Shown: positions 2,473 to 35,366 of the stretch, piece by piece
Layout of the letters: each line of letters opens with the position of its first letter
Numbering within the stretch: the stretch's first letter is position 1
IMG/VR virus record: IMGVR_UViG_3300042691_030776
DNA length: 64,000 nt
Strand: one strand, 5' to 3'
DNA from: a virus
The notes under the pieces: model-generated
The model's input: the letters and a program-made list of their open reading frames with translations, nothing else
Told to the model about the DNA's origin: nothing
Databases searched by the model: none
Program-made: the position numbers and the translations under genes

Positions 2473-2504
2473 ATCTAGCTCCTACTCTGTTACTGTATTC
2501 TATT

Positions 2505-2583: not shown

Positions 2584-4824
2584 CTAACTTCGTATTACTA
2601 GGGCCTCTGCTTGCTCTTTGGTGTACTGGTTTGGAGCCAAGGTACCTGGTTCTTCGATGCTTTCGGTGGGCAACGATGTGTCTTGTTCTAGCCCTGCGGC
2701 TGCCAGGCGTTCAGAATTTCGGCCTTCGCGCATGGCCGCGATCATAGCTTGTCCACCAAGATTGTTGGCCACAGCCACACGTTCCAACCACATAGCAGGG
2801 CCACCAAACTCTGTGTACTTGGCGTATTCAGGTAGTTGCTCTGCAAAACTCATTGCCACGTTGTTGTTGGGCAATATGTCACTGGCCACAAGATCAATCC
2901 TTTGTCTGTTGAGATACTCTCTGCCCAGTTGATCTTGCCAGGCTTGTTCATTGTTGTAAACTGTCTGTGCTGTTGAATAGTTGTCGATTATGTCTACAGA
3001 CGCTACAGCAGTTACAGGGATGATGCCATTGATCCAGGCATCCTCGTATGCTTCTTCGGCTGTGCTATAAGGACCATAGGTTCCGGCTGCGGCCCAACCC
3101 GCTGGTATTTCTACTTCCCAAGCTGGTGGATCTAGCATTGGATCAGGTGCAGTGTTTACAGGACCAAATGTACCTTGGCTAAACGCCTGTATTGTTTCAT
3201 AGATACCTTGAACTTGTGTAAACTCTGAAAACGCACCTGCCGCATTCAACTCAGCTAACTTTGTGGAGTTATCTTGTAAATAAGAACCGCTGTTGTATCC
3301 GGCGGCAAAACCAATAACATCGGATATTACCAGTTTTCCAAGAGCTCCTGTGCCCAGAGGAATGTCGTAGTCTTGATTGTACTGAGTATTCCAATAATCA
3401 AGAACACCTTGTGGAATATATTGAGTTTGCCCTTGTATCAGCGGTAAGTCTTCAAGATTTTCCAATCCGCCAATGGTCACGGCCAGTGTGTCTGTCGAAG
3501 AGTTCTGTATGCCTTTGATCTGTAACAAACTGCGTGACAAGGCATCATTGGCCACTGCAAGATCATCAGGTATTATACCTTTGAGATCTTGGCCTAGATG
3601 ATTGAGTTGAGGATTCACAGCACCTGATTCATCCTCATATATGGCTCGGAATCCCACACTGGCAGTTCTCACAGGAGTGGTCAGTGTGGTATAACTCTTG
3701 CCAAACAACTTAGTAGGATTAAGAAGATCCTGACCTGTGCGAACTGCTGTTTGTGTGTTGTTGAGGATGGCCTTGACTTGAGATACCTCTGTGGGAGACA
3801 ATGTGCCAAGCTGAGCATATATGTCTTTTTGTATCGAAGGAGGAAGATTGGCACCTGTCCTGGCCAGAGTATTCAAGTCCACTCCTAGATCTTTTAGAGT
3901 GATATTACGAGTAACATCTGTCAGGCTGATGGTAGATTTACCGCCGGTGAGCACACCATAGGCCGATGTCACTATGTTATAACCAAGCTCTTGTGCTGTT
4001 TTTTCGCTGATCTTGATAGTTCCTAACTTTTCGTACATGGGTCCCAAGGTTCCGTTATTTTCCATGTTGGCCATGAGCTGTCCGGGAGACCCAAGATTTT
4101 TTAGATTTTCCCAACTCACAGTATCACCAAGTTGAGAGATGTCGTCACCTAAGCCTTTGACCCAGTTGGATACTCCGGTGACACCAGCTGTGATAGTTTC
4201 TTCCATGCTGGTAAAAGTTTTTTCTAGATACTTGCCACCGCGTTCGGCCGCATTGACAAAACTGTTGGCAGTGTTGACATAGCTCTGTGCTGTGTTGAAT
4301 ATACTTCCTAATATTTTTGGATCGCCAACCAATGCACCCGCAACCAGTGTTCCAGTGCCTCCCAAGGATTGACTTGCCCATTTTATGCTTTCTTGGATGG
4401 CTGTGGTGTAAACTTGTTCTGTGACCGTTGCTAAGAACTGTGCAGTCTTGGGACCAAAAGTACCAGTCACGCTATTGAGAACTTCTTTACCAGCTGCCGC
4501 GGGTGCAGTGGAAATAGCGTTCCAAGCTTCACGCATGGGCTGTGTGAACTCTAGCACAGCATTTTTCATCTCGCCCAAGGTTTGTGTAAGACTGCTGTAC
4601 CAACTCTGGCTAGTGGTAGTCAACAGGCCCTGAGAAGTGGCCTGTGCAGTACTCATGACTTGACTGGTGCCATCAGGAAAGAACACAGTGACTTCGCTCA
4701 AAGAACCCAGCGCGGCTTCTCCTCCAATGGGTGCGCCACCAAGTATTTCTGACAGGCCGCCGTTGGCAATGAACGACGCGGCCGCGGTCATTATGATCGA
4801 GGTTAACGCACCTGCGCAGGCCAT
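2584..4824 (-). CDS. Large hypothetical protein, probably virion/baseplate-associated
   Basis: 746 aa, T/G/A/N-rich, hydrophobic N-terminus, immediately downstream of PAAR gene. Confidence 0.55.
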   Translation of the reverse strand: MACAGALTSIIMTAAASFIANGGLSEILGGAPIGGEAALGSLSEVTVFFPDGTSQVMSTAQATSQGLLTTTSQSWYSSLTQTLGEMKNAVLEFTQPMREAWNAISTAPAAAGKEVLNSVTGTFGPKTAQFLATVTEQVYTTAIQESIKWASQSLGGTGTLVAGALVGDPKILGSIFNTAQSYVNTANSFVNAAERGGKYLEKTFTSMEETITAGVTGVSNWVKGLGDDISQLGDTVSWENLKNLGSPGQLMANMENNGTLGPMYEKLGTIKISEKTAQELGYNIVTSAYGVLTGGKSTISLTDVTRNITLKDLGVDLNTLARTGANLPPSIQKDIYAQLGTLSPTEVSQVKAILNNTQTAVRTGQDLLNPTKLFGKSYTTLTTPVRTASVGFRAIYEDESGAVNPQLNHLGQDLKGIIPDDLAVANDALSRSLLQIKGIQNSSTDTLAVTIGGLENLEDLPLIQGQTQYIPQGVLDYWNTQYNQDYDIPLGTGALGKLVISDVIGFAAGYNSGSYLQDNSTKLAELNAAGAFSEFTQVQGIYETIQAFSQGTFGPVNTAPDPMLDPPAWEVEIPAGWAAAGTYGPYSTAEEAYEDAWINGIIPVTAVASVDIIDNYSTAQTVYNNEQAWQDQLGREYLNRQRIDLVASDILPNNNVAMSFAEQLPEYAKYTEFGGPAMWLERVAVANNLGGQAMIAAMREGRNSERLAAAGLEQDTSLPTESIEEPGTLAPNQYTKEQAEALVIRS

Positions 4825-31710: not shown

Positions 31711-33176
31711 TATGTAGTCATCCACTCTAGTTTTTCTTGTGTGAACGGGTAGCGAGCTTCTTTGTAGTAGGCCTTGCGCTTGGTCAAGTGTCTTTTGGCA
31801 AATCGGCAGGTGGATGTGATATCCCAGATTTGAACATGGTCTTTGTCCTCTGCTTTTCTAATACCACGCCCAATACTCTGTATAACTCTGACAAAGCTCT
31901 TTCCGGGCTCCACAAGCACCAGATTGAAAATCCTAGGAATGTTAATACCAACAGCAGCCACACCATAGGTAGCAACAATAATCTTATCGGTAGCCTCAGC
32001 CACTTCATCATACTCATCCTGTCTGTCCTTTGCTTTGGTTGCACCACTCACAAACACAGCACGTTCACCAAGTCTACGTACTAACTCCTGCCCGGCCGTG
32101 ATACGATCTACTAACACCAAGGTATTGCCTGTTTCATTGACTTGGCTTATCAAACTAGCCATGGTATCAAGTCTGCCTGATTCTTCCAGCAGATATTTTA
32201 GTTCGCTCTGATAGTTGTTGTATTCAACATGGTCTACCAACTGCACAATATTGACATGGCATTGTGCCAGCACACCTCGATCCTGTAGTTCAGCGGCTGC
32301 CAATCTGTTTATTACTGGCCCAAGGCTGACATGTATGGCTTGGAACTCAAAGTCTTCTTTGGGTATAGTACCAGTCAGTCCCCAGCGAATCGGCACTTCT
32401 GCCATGACCCCTGTCAGCAAGGTTTTCAGTGCATCAGCTTTGGCCATGTGTACTTCGTCAACGATGACACACACAACACCCTCTAGGAACTCACCAATGG
32501 TGATATCTGCTGATTGGTTCTTGGTATTCTTTAACAGCACATTGAGACTCTGCCAAGTGCAGATGGTATGTTGGCGTCCAAACTCTTTGCGGTCACCAAA
32601 GAACACACCTACATCTAGTTCCATGTTGATGTAGTCTCGTTCTGTTTGTGTCACCAGACTTTTGTTTGGCACGATCACTATGCTTCGACCATACGGTGTT
32701 ACAGCATGGCTCAGTGCGGCTGTCATGATTGTTTTACCTGCACCTGTGGCCACTTCTTGTAGGCATTGTGGATTGGCTAGAAAGTTGTTGACAATCTCTA
32801 CCTGATAGTCACGCAACATGACAGGCTCTCCGGCCTGGGGGTGACCTTTGGGCCATGAGATATCTTTAAAAGAGTCTTCTCGTACTTGTTCAAACTCAAA
32901 TGTAGTAGAATATGTTCTCTGATCATCAAGTTCGATATCGTAATCGTATTCTTCAAGAATGGGAATGATTTCGGGTAACAGATTTACATAAGTGCTACCG
33001 CCCAGTTGGAAAAAAGAAACTTTGCCATCCCACCGGCCCAAACGTACCGCAGGTAGATAGCGAGCATAAGGAACATCGTATTTGAACTTGTTGACCAGAG
33101 CGCGGCGTGCATCCAGTTCTAGTCCTTCGATTTTGACATTGACTTCGTCAGTTATAATCAGTCGGGCAGTTCGCAT
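31710..33176 (-). CDS. uvsW: SF2 DNA helicase (UvsW-like)
   Basis: LRDYQ, ATGAGKT, DEVH, GLTGT, QSIGRGIR. Confidence 0.9.
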   Translation of the reverse strand: MRTARLIITDEVNVKIEGLELDARRALVNKFKYDVPYARYLPAVRLGRWDGKVSFFQLGGSTYVNLLPEIIPILEEYDYDIELDDQRTYSTTFEFEQVREDSFKDISWPKGHPQAGEPVMLRDYQVEIVNNFLANPQCLQEVATGAGKTIMTAALSHAVTPYGRSIVIVPNKSLVTQTERDYINMELDVGVFFGDRKEFGRQHTICTWQSLNVLLKNTKNQSADITIGEFLEGVVCVIVDEVHMAKADALKTLLTGVMAEVPIRWGLTGTIPKEDFEFQAIHVSLGPVINRLAAAELQDRGVLAQCHVNIVQLVDHVEYNNYQSELKYLLEESGRLDTMASLISQVNETGNTLVLVDRITAGQELVRRLGERAVFVSGATKAKDRQDEYDEVAEATDKIIVATYGVAAVGINIPRIFNLVLVEPGKSFVRVIQSIGRGIRKAEDKDHVQIWDITSTCRFAKRHLTKRKAYYKEARYPFTQEKLEWMTT

Positions 33177-33991
33177 TAAAGTATTGACAATGAAAAATAG
33201 TTATCGTTTATTATAACATTCTCTTCGAGTGTTTGTCTAGCAAGTGTGAGATTTTTTTCCCAATCACATAGATTACCCAGAGACAAACTGCCCGGTAATG
33301 GTACAAGATTTTTTTGCTGACTCCATTCAAGAAACTCAGCAGGCGGTGTAGCTTGATATGGGCGTCGCAGATTTATGCCAACAAAGGCATCAATATTGTC
33401 CCAGTTGCAATCGTCTTCCCAAATGTCTTGATATATGTCAAGGTTCTGGAACTTTTCAAATGCAAATCTTCCGTGCCCCGGATATTCAACATAGAGATTA
33501 GAAACTTGCCAGGTAAATAGGTCTCGTTTAAAAGGATTATCAACTCTCCAGTTAGTAGAGTCTCGGAATGCATAGTTAAATGACTGCTCAATCAAGTGTA
33601 TGTGACAGTTCATTTCCTGATAGGCCTGGAAGTATTTGTTGTCAATCTTGAAAAGCAAATCACTGAGCTTTGGTATCTTGGCTCGAGTATCTGCCCAGGC
33701 CTTGTGCAGTGTATTCAACTGGCGTTGATCATACCAGTTTTCAGGTTTCTGGAATAGAGGAAGTTTTAACTTTCCTAAGATTTCATTGACAGTATCAATG
33801 TATTCTATTTCTTCTTGAATGAACCGTTGTGTGTTTCGCGGAAAGAAAAACTCATCAACAAGTTGCCCGCCGGACTTGTACCTATTGCCCTTTTCTTGGC
33901 TGGTTTCTACAAACCAAGTGGTAAACTTTTCGTGGTGAGCGTCAAATAAAATACTGTCGTTGGTTTTGTTCCAGGTGAGTTTCAATCTCAT
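33176..33991 (-). CDS. Hypothetical protein
   Basis: 271 aa; LNTLH...NCHIHLIE. Confidence 0.7.
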   Translation of the reverse strand: MRLKLTWNKTNDSILFDAHHEKFTTWFVETSQEKGNRYKSGGQLVDEFFFPRNTQRFIQEEIEYIDTVNEILGKLKLPLFQKPENWYDQRQLNTLHKAWADTRAKIPKLSDLLFKIDNKYFQAYQEMNCHIHLIEQSFNYAFRDSTNWRVDNPFKRDLFTWQVSNLYVEYPGHGRFAFEKFQNLDIYQDIWEDDCNWDNIDAFVGINLRRPYQATPPAEFLEWSQQKNLVPLPGSLSLGNLCDWEKNLTLARQTLEENVIINDNYFSLSIL

Positions 33992-34004
33992 AATAGTATC
34001 TTTT

Positions 34005-34033
34005 ATAATAAGAGATTGTATTTAAGAAGTCAA
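34005..34033 (-). promoter_or_regulatory. Sigma70-like promoter with nested TAAATA
   Basis: TTGACT-tctTAAATAcaatctct-TATTAT, 17-nt spacer. Confidence 0.55.
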
Positions 34034-34063
34034 AAAAACAGGCACCTTTTTAGGGGTGCCTGT
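34032..34063 (-). terminator. Intrinsic terminator of ATPase transcript
   Basis: ACAGGCACC-loop-GGTGCCTGT followed by a U-tract on the minus strand. Confidence 0.85.
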
Positions 34064-34069
34064 GTCAAA

Positions 34070-34110
34070 GTTGGAATGTCTAGGAGCTAGACTATTGATG
34101 ACACTCCAAC
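34070..34110 (-). ncRNA. Candidate 3'-UTR hairpin RNA with anti-Shine-Dalgarno loop
   Basis: 11-bp stem GUUGGAGUGUC/GACAUUCCAAC (one G-U); 19-nt loop AUCAAUAGUCUAGCUCCUA. Confidence 0.55.
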
Positions 34111-34117
34111 GATACTG

Positions 34118-35140
34118 TCAATGTTTCATGACAGTATTTTCGGCCAGTGCTCGCCAGTTGGCGCTCACTTTGGTAAGGTCCGCAATCTTAAGAGCCATAC
34201 GCAGGCTCATTTCGCGGAGTTTGTCTTTGTTCTCGTCCATGAAGTTGAGAATCTCATCACCTTGTTCAGGTGTGAAGTCGTAGTCATTAAACAGTTGACC
34301 CTGGCGGAAGATCTGCTTGATACGCAGGAACTTGTCGCGCATGGTGTCCAAAGTCAGGTCCAAGAAGTGGCACCGGCTCTGCAGAGCTTCAAGGTGATCT
34401 TGCAGTTTCTTCGACTTGAGGTGATCAAACTTCAAGTTGGTAATAAAGATCGCAGAGCCTTTGAAGTCAAATGAGTCAGGCACACCTTCACGACGGAGCA
34501 TGGCTGAGTCGGAGTTCCAGCAAATACGACGCTTCTTGCCTGAGTCCAGGGCGGCCTTGAGGATGTTCAATGCCACGTCATCTTGGAACACACTGTCACA
34601 GTCATCAAACACCAAAACGTTGTTGGGATCACTGTGACGATACAGAGTGCAGTACAAGCCAATGGGTGTCATCGCACCTTTGATCACTTCGTACTTGATC
34701 TTGCGACCAGACAGCTGATCAAACAAGCCAGCCTTTTCCAGCTGGAACTCAACACCATAGGATTTGCCCACACCCGGAGGGCCAACTACGATCATGGCAC
34801 GGATGTCTCCGGCGATAGCGGCCTTGGTCATGTCGTCAAGGATGTTGAATCGTTGCTCAATACGATGCATGACTTCTTCGTCGGTTTCTACCTTGGCAGG
34901 TTGTTTGAACTCTACTACCTTGTCTGCTTGACCCATGGGCTCTCCATCTACAAACTCAATGTCATTGATGCTGTCAACTTTCACGCGGATTTCATCAGGG
35001 AAACCCGGAAAATAATCACCGTTGGCCACGGTAACAAAGTTACCTTTGGCGCTGGTAGTAAAATCTTTCACCAGTGCAAAAGTAGCATTGGTGATAGGCT
35101 TGTTGCGGTAAACGCCGCGAACGATACGAACTGTAGTCAT
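34118..35140 (-). CDS. AAA+/P-loop ATPase (early)
   Basis: Walker A GPPGVGKS, Walker B VLVFDD, IFITN sensor, ALQSR arginine finger. Confidence 0.88.
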   Translation of the reverse strand: MTTVRIVRGVYRNKPITNATFALVKDFTTSAKGNFVTVANGDYFPGFPDEIRVKVDSINDIEFVDGEPMGQADKVVEFKQPAKVETDEEVMHRIEQRFNILDDMTKAAIAGDIRAMIVVGPPGVGKSYGVEFQLEKAGLFDQLSGRKIKYEVIKGAMTPIGLYCTLYRHSDPNNVLVFDDCDSVFQDDVALNILKAALDSGKKRRICWNSDSAMLRREGVPDSFDFKGSAIFITNLKFDHLKSKKLQDHLEALQSRCHFLDLTLDTMRDKFLRIKQIFRQGQLFNDYDFTPEQGDEILNFMDENKDKLREMSLRMALKIADLTKVSANWRALAENTVMKH

Positions 35141-35172
35141 TTAGTCTGCTCCTAAAATGATTGTTAAACTGT

Positions 35173-35362
35173 ATTGTATGCTAGTGCTCTTTTTGTGTCA
35201 ACTGGCACTGTTTGCTACAACCTTTTTACTTACTATGCTAGTATTATAGCAAAATGGCTGTTTCTGGTCAACCCCGTGTTTTTCCGGGCTTTTTTGGTGT
35301 TGTTTTTTTGCAACATCTTTATTTTATGTTATTATTGTAGCATTTATCGCATTTCTGGTCAA
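35173..35362 (-). promoter_or_regulatory. Three tandem sigma70 promoters
   Basis: TTGACA-17-TACAAT (35173-35201), TTGACC-17-TATAAT (35243-35271), TTGACC-17-TACAAT (35334-35362). Confidence 0.85.
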
Positions 35363-35366
35363 CCAT

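Follow-up and report, generated by a model that had tools for sequence, protein, structure and literature searches.

The window analysed here, a stretch of 64,000 nucleotides of the IMG/VR virus record IMGVR_UViG_3300042691_030776, raises the question of whether the 3' end of an early transcription unit encoding an AAA-type ATPase carries an RNA element that acts on the translation start of the same message. Post-transcriptional autoregulation via an mRNA's own 3' end is, to our knowledge, described in few bacterial cases only, and literature searches found neither a case of 3'-end autoregulation in a lytic phage nor a report on the regulation of nrdC.10, of which the ATPase gene is a homologue.

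The ATPase unit and the pairing of its two ends

The minus strand of the window carries, in order of transcription, three early promoters, a short A/U-rich leader, the ATPase gene, a hairpin, a U-rich spacer, a terminator and a further early promoter. The features of this unit, and a second gene start with complementarity to the hairpin loop, are:

35173..35362 (-), stack of three early promoters of sigma70 type driving the ATPase unit (promoter scan, 10-11/12 matches each)
35362-35334, 35271-35243 and 35201-35173 (-), the individual promoters P1, P2 and P3 (scan and sequence reading)
35136..35154 (-), ATPase translation initiation region (SD, spacer, AUG), the 5' pairing partner (sequence, duplex and whole-mRNA fold)
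34118..35140 (-), AAA-type ATPase of 340 aa, homologue of NrdC.10 (T4-type), phrog_1250 (homology)
34070..34110 (-), hairpin with 5' arm 34110-34100, loop 34099-34081 and 3' arm 34080-34070 (fold and stem covariation)
34080..34094 (-), anti-RBS core, 3' loop half (invariant columns in type-A alignment A1; ~60 IMG/VR hairpin contexts)
34064..34069 (-), short U-rich spacer of 6 nt from hairpin to terminator (alike in types A, B, D and E)
34031..34063 (-), intrinsic terminator with a 9-bp stem and a U-tract (scan, with the terminator at 34063-34038 and then the U-tract; fold)
34005..34033 (-), early promoter 3' of the terminator, PeSL-like, its -35 box overlapped by the terminator U-tract
2474..2484 (-), RBS of gene 2224-2472 (82 aa, early promoter 2533-2505), a candidate trans target with 11 nt exactly complementary to the loop

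The hairpin, within the last ~80 bases of the message, begins 7 nt 3' of the ATPase stop codon. Its 11-bp stem (34100-34110 / 34070-34080), in which one pair is G-U on the minus strand, encloses a loop of 19 nt (34081-34099); a preliminary description of this locus had read the same stem and wobble pair from the letters. Folding of the region, which that description had proposed as a check, gave -31.7 kcal/mol for 34025-34125(-) with z = -4.3, a value equalled by 0 of 200 shuffles. Rfam covariance models had no match at the gathering score anywhere in the window.

Regarding the pairing partner, the loop forms with 35136-35154 a duplex of 7 bp, a 1-nt bulge, 6 bp, a small internal loop and a further 3-5 bp, with a predicted energy of -19.5 kcal/mol (RNAduplex, isolated loop) that none of 1000 shuffled loops attained. 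The RBS of gene 2224-2472 gave -20.2 kcal/mol, and these two sites rank second and first, respectively, among 75 predicted gene starts, the next reaching -14.2 kcal/mol and the median being -6.9. The 11-mer complement occurs within the window only at 34081 (+) and 2484 (-). Both pairings had been put forward in the preliminary description and both hold, including the exact 11-mer match, as do all of the coordinates stated there. The other RBSs of the window are weak and diverse, so the loop pairing is not a generic SD effect, and no terminator-proximal, SD-covering complement was found in the other transcription units of the window.

In the whole-mRNA fold for the window, 18 of the 19 bases of the RBS segment pair with the 3' element (P ~1.0). 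Across 12 representatives, folds of the full-length mRNA (1.1-1.2 kb) contained the RBS x 3' element pairing in the MFE structure of eight, and the ensemble probability of this pairing was 0.6-1.0 in seven representatives and ~1.0 in the window. These folds, which describe thermodynamic equilibrium and ignore ribosomes and kinetics, show that a closed loop of the full-length mRNA is predicted to be energetically favoured.

Similar early promoters had been described before both gene starts. This is borne out by the promoter word GGTTGACCAGAAA, which a window search located at 35364, 35273 and 2535, but the ATPase promoter closest to the gene (35201) has a -35 context unlike that of the other two. 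A 13-nt -35 word is common to P1, P2 and the promoter at 2535 (window 35233-35364 (-)), and the gap of ~60 nt between P1 and P2 contains a small hairpin and a 27-codon ORF without an SD. A promoter belonging to the hairpin itself was considered in the window and rejected, as a -35-like word overlaps the stop codon but is not kept in close relatives. On the 3' side of the terminator, gene 33176-33991 lacks an SD and starts ~7-10 nt past the point where transcription from promoter 34033-34005 is predicted to begin (window 33991-34033 (-)); its early message looks nearly leaderless, as judged from these positions.

Conservation, position and strand of the 3' element

Megablast against cultured phages gave no match; there is no cultured close relative, the best protein identity being 39%. 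In IMG/VR, hundreds of contigs carry the ATPase at 60-96% identity, including complete genomes of 337-352 kb, and the relatives compared here are ~190 IMG/VR contigs of T4-like jumbo phages of roughly 340 kb. An automated pass over 192 loci located the ATPase start, the stop and the first downstream intrinsic terminator, and an element was scored wherever the 62 nt before this terminator hold at least 7 nt fully complementary to the ATPase RBS, SD included. Of the 146 distinct RBS/3'-end combinations, 132 have such an anti-RBS element 5' of that terminator, compared with 1/72 in the control, for which the terminator of the preceding unit was used. The element was retained in 63 of the 64 cases in which one to five small genes are inserted between the ATPase and the terminator, with distances from stop codon to element of up to 2.1 kb. 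It thus stays at the terminator despite inserted genes and is tied to the 3' end of the transcription unit rather than to the stop codon of the ATPase. Two complete type-A genomes and one nearly complete type-D genome (types are defined below) hold the element once each.

Regarding its absences, the lineages without the element (L059-L064) are also without a GGAGC-type RBS; exceptions are L053 and L065/66, which have a GGAGC-type RBS and no recognisable element. None of seven cultured T4-like or Ackermann-type phages (T4, S13, Morttis, VAP7, Boboto, 207E48.1 and Aeromonas 31) has the element.

The hairpin stem varies around a constant loop: 47 distinct type-A hairpins present at least 10 different stems around an invariant 13-nt loop core. 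In alignment A1, double changes were detected in 10 of the 11 type-A stem pairs (0/500 shuffles, with no slid register coming close), and similarly in six of the seven type-D pairs (0/500 shuffles). The stems of the relatives contain ~35 G-U pairs vs one C.A, which implies an RNA on the ATPase sense strand only, and the comparison shows the predicted hairpin to be an RNA of that strand.

This bears on a reading in which the conserved sequence is the start of a small antisense gene, with its plus-strand SD and ATG at 34081-34100, a possibility that the preliminary description had named as contrary to its own. The plus-strand ATG at 34098 does open an ORF of ~61 codons (listed from an upstream GTG as a 75-aa ORF), and ATG, GTG or TTG is present at this site in several relatives as well. 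However, the start codon is missing in several lineages, the length of the frame ranges from 4 to ~61 codons, the stem wobbles point away from the plus strand by ~35 to 1 and the promoter scan found no antisense promoter, so that neither start codon nor ORF length is conserved and we regard such a gene as wholly improbable.

Matched changes in RBS and 3' element

The ATPase RBS and its 3' element fall into seven types, given here with both partners written 5'-3':

Type A: RBS UAGGAGC(N)UAGAC; 3' element GUCUAGCUCCUA
Type B: RBS AGGAGCUA; 3' element UAGCUCCU
Type B': RBS AGGAGCUAA; 3' element UUAGCUCCU
Type C: RBS CGGAGCAA; 3' element UUGCUCCG
Type D: RBS GGAGCCAACCA; 3' element UGGUUGGCUCC
Type E1: RBS GGGCUAGUAA; 3' element UUACUAGCCC
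Type E2: RBS GGGCUAGAAA; 3' element UUUCUAGCCC

In each type the two are Watson-Crick complements over 8-11 nt, most type-A RBSs pairing with a 1-nt bulge and not perfectly. Where the RBS has U, A or C directly after the SD core, the element correspondingly has A, U or G; in type D, the 10-11 paired nt run across a spacer of unrelated sequence as far as the A of the AUG; type E has an altered SD core with the matching change in the element, and E1 and E2 are a single compensatory A-U flip apart. The mean longest complement was 8.6 nt for own pairs vs 6.8 for cross pairs, and only 2 of the 5040 possible assignments in a permutation of groups (7 x 7 matrix) reach the true one. RNAduplex on whole 73-nt UTRs was noisy (own -15.4 vs cross -14.4) because terminators are GC-rich, and was replaced by anchored and longest-complement tests.

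On a tree of 65 ATPases (IQ-TREE) the types are polyphyletic, with 14 changes where seven would be the minimum, which indicates that RBS and element were replaced together repeatedly. In independent contrasts of the seven RBS/element word pairs, the RBS was concordant wherever the element differed, with no opposite case, each single-trait test being underpowered (best p = 0.06). Types A, B', D and E each occur in more than one ATPase clade of the tree. The pattern suggests that the 5' and 3' regulatory ends may be swapped among phages independently of the coding sequence.

Conserved and co-varying complementarity beyond a generic CUCCU, the lack of which in relatives the preliminary description had named as refuting its idea, is thus what the seven matched types, the permutation and the joint switches on the tree display. 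The pairing of RBS and 3' end predicted from these comparisons is real, strongly conserved and co-varying, and the sequences of the relatives likewise show structure, strand, the fixed position at the operon 3' end and co-evolution of both partners. In comparative terms, such natural covariation corresponds to an experiment with compensatory mutations.

Regarding the context of the element, types A, C (second copy), D and E carry the anti-RBS within the 3' half of the loop, and in type B it is single-stranded, immediately 5' of a hairpin. Protein-binding hairpins, too, typically combine a conserved loop with a variable stem, and the hairpin might be a protein-binding signal, an RNase-processing signal or a 3' stabiliser in which the likeness to an anti-RBS is incidental. 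This would leave unexplained both the matched changes of loop and ATPase RBS in seven types, SD core included, and the type B motif outside a loop, and we consider it improbable.

A DNA-level origin is less probable still. The partners are inverted repeats of 8-11 bp in DNA flanking the ATPase cassette, in a region full of PeSL-like shuffling cassettes, and could be recombination or inversion sites or paired sites of a DNA-binding protein. The wobbles at the ends of the RBS-element helix (15 G-U vs 14 A-C) are without the strand signature seen in the hairpin stem, and are therefore neutral on this point. Against such an origin, one repeat is a working RBS at normal spacing to the AUG, the other always stands in a single-stranded RNA context beside a terminator on the transcribed strand, the ATPase gene is inverted in none of the ~190 loci and the repeats are too short for homologous exchange.

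Probable mode of action, candidate targets and known counterparts

The 3' end of the early ATPase unit is probably an anti-RBS RNA module that limits ATPase translation and is thus autoregulatory. It would consist of a hairpin presenting the complement of the ATPase SD and spacer (to the AUG), the U-rich spacer and the intrinsic terminator; as soon as transcription has passed the 3' end, the loop would pair with the ATPase RBS and block 30S binding. We infer repression from analogy with systems in which such a pairing was assayed, among them Bacillus subtilis, where distal anti-SD-like 8-mers were measured to repress in cis across hundreds of nucleotides (PMC12697547).

The same pairing might instead protect or activate the message, by keeping a RegB-like endonuclease away from the GGAG of the SD or by stabilising the mRNA ends, with a helicase or ribosomes reopening translation. 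Covariation demonstrates the pairing and not the sign of its effect, the phage is T4-like and T4 RegB cleaves the GGAG of early SDs (review PMC3014915), and the stability of B. subtilis hbs mRNA is governed by a contact between 5' and 3' UTR (PMC5737220). However, the pairing spans SD to AUG, the classic geometry of repression, and distal anti-SD sequences repress when assayed (PMC12697547, PMC3868564); a protective or activating role is accordingly judged unlikely.

If the module represses, it could do so in two ways. In cis, the mRNA would form a closed loop, the nascent message being translated and then closed when the 3' end emerges; in trans, a nuclease-resistant double-hairpin 3' fragment with spacer and terminator would outlast decay of the mRNA and, as a small RNA, titrate new messages. 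Either way the output of a gene with three strong early promoters would be capped, as negative autoregulation or as a timer restricting translation to nascent transcripts. The element is strictly co-transcribed with the ATPase, which argues against a free-standing regulator and fits both modes, and the odds of cis and trans action are roughly even.

The preliminary description had suggested a cis lock or a 3'-UTR sRNA that shuts off a set of early genes. Its core, the pairing of RBS and 3' end, is conserved and co-varying, but the set of early targets is not general and appears in some lineages only. The match at the RBS of gene 2224-2472 is reduced to 8+2 nt in a 95%-identical relative and absent from distant relatives, and two further genes have matching RBSs in the type-D genome. 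A multi-gene regulon was rejected for the two complete type-A genomes, in which the 11-mer occurs once each and has no other exact target. As far as complementarity can tell, these additional early genes may serve some lineages as secondary targets in trans, or the matches could instead result from copying of promoter/RBS cassettes.

A more tentative proposal is that the 3'-terminal fragment acts in trans as a phage sRNA, an RNA counterpart of T4 RegA/RegB, silencing the ATPase and a few lineage-specific early genes whose RBSs have evolved to match. If so, types A to E would be orthogonal seed/RBS pairs evolving as a lock-and-key family across jumbo phages.

The type-D 9-mer has 19 copies in the 349-kb contig G008 (which lies behind locus L261) vs none for the reversed control; 15 of the 19 are in-frame Gly-Ala-Asn repeats and not RBSs (e.g. 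91462, 108137 and 112184), the proteins in question probably being large and fibre-like. In another relative (L213:2942-3040, genome G006), a few bases separate the end of a sigma70-like promoter word from the 5' arm of the hairpin; hairpin and terminator could there be made as a primary small RNA of ~75 nt.

Regarding known systems, the P1/P7 c4 antisense RNA of a temperate phage controls antirepressor synthesis and is likewise a phage RNA co-transcribed with its target, its loops pairing with the RBS region of the same transcript; unlike the present element, c4 lies 5' of its target and is freed by RNase P. The closest known systems are icaR and OppZ/CarZ, and it is the phage version that is new, the regulatory principle being known. 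OppZ and CarZ of Vibrio cholerae are autoregulatory, 3'UTR-derived sRNAs that are released by RNase E, depend on Hfq and act in trans (PMC7398697). By computation the phage element shares with them its place at the extreme 3' end of the operon, right before the Rho-independent terminator that it shares with the mRNA (132/146 loci), complementarity to an RBS of its own operon and the negative-feedback logic of one regulator per transcript. It differs in that the predicted target is the RBS of the first cistron, a hairpin loop presents the seed (types A, D and E) and the carrier is an uncultured lytic jumbo phage.

In Staphylococcus aureus icaR, a 3'UTR anti-SD pairs with the mRNA's own SD, blocks translation and creates an RNase III site, and cis and inter-molecular pairing were weighed alike (PMC3868564). 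The phage mRNA similarly has, by computation, a 3'UTR anti-SD motif complementary to its own SD. In contrast to the long 3'UTR of icaR with its documented RNase III cleavage, the phage element is compact, a hairpin placed ~10 nt away from the terminator, and is supported by broad comparative covariation.

T4 RegA and RegB are proteins with many targets that bring about post-transcriptional shut-off of early mRNAs (PMC3014915). They resemble the proposed module in acting on the initiation regions and GGAG of early messages and curbing early protein synthesis, but here an RNA carried on the transcript of the target itself would be the agent.

PeSL cassettes are known from T4-type phages (PMC2839356, PMC4122927) and are described, in the portion of PMC4122927 available, as terminator/promoter/SD cassettes mediating shuffling. 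In its terminator/promoter part, the anti-RBS hairpin excluded, the present locus conforms to this, as a sigma70-like early promoter followed by an SD adjoins the terminator stem-loop and there are repeated promoter words and adjacent gene insertions; neither an anti-RBS hairpin nor RBS-3' covariation is described for PeSLs in that portion of PMC4122927. Such regulatory cassettes would thus be able to bear a further RNA layer. In virulent Pseudomonas phages, candidate UTR-derived RNAs were reported, with no function given in the accessible part of the report (PMC10914365).

The proposed device is a conserved feature of a large clade of uncultured jumbo phages and flags the NrdC.10-like ATPase as a protein whose dosage these phages may control tightly. 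The natural covariation has also yielded several distinct seed/RBS pairs that look usable as synthetic translational controllers. In a cultured jumbo phage, Pseudomonas phage PAC2 (L298, PA5oct-like), the NrdC.10-like gene has 8 nt between SD and AUG that are complementary to the 3' arm of a hairpin directly past the stop codon (sites ~2460-2490 and 3640-3685), the 5' arm of this hairpin being a repeat of the RBS-proximal word; the gene may carry an analogous device in a phage with existing transcriptomes.
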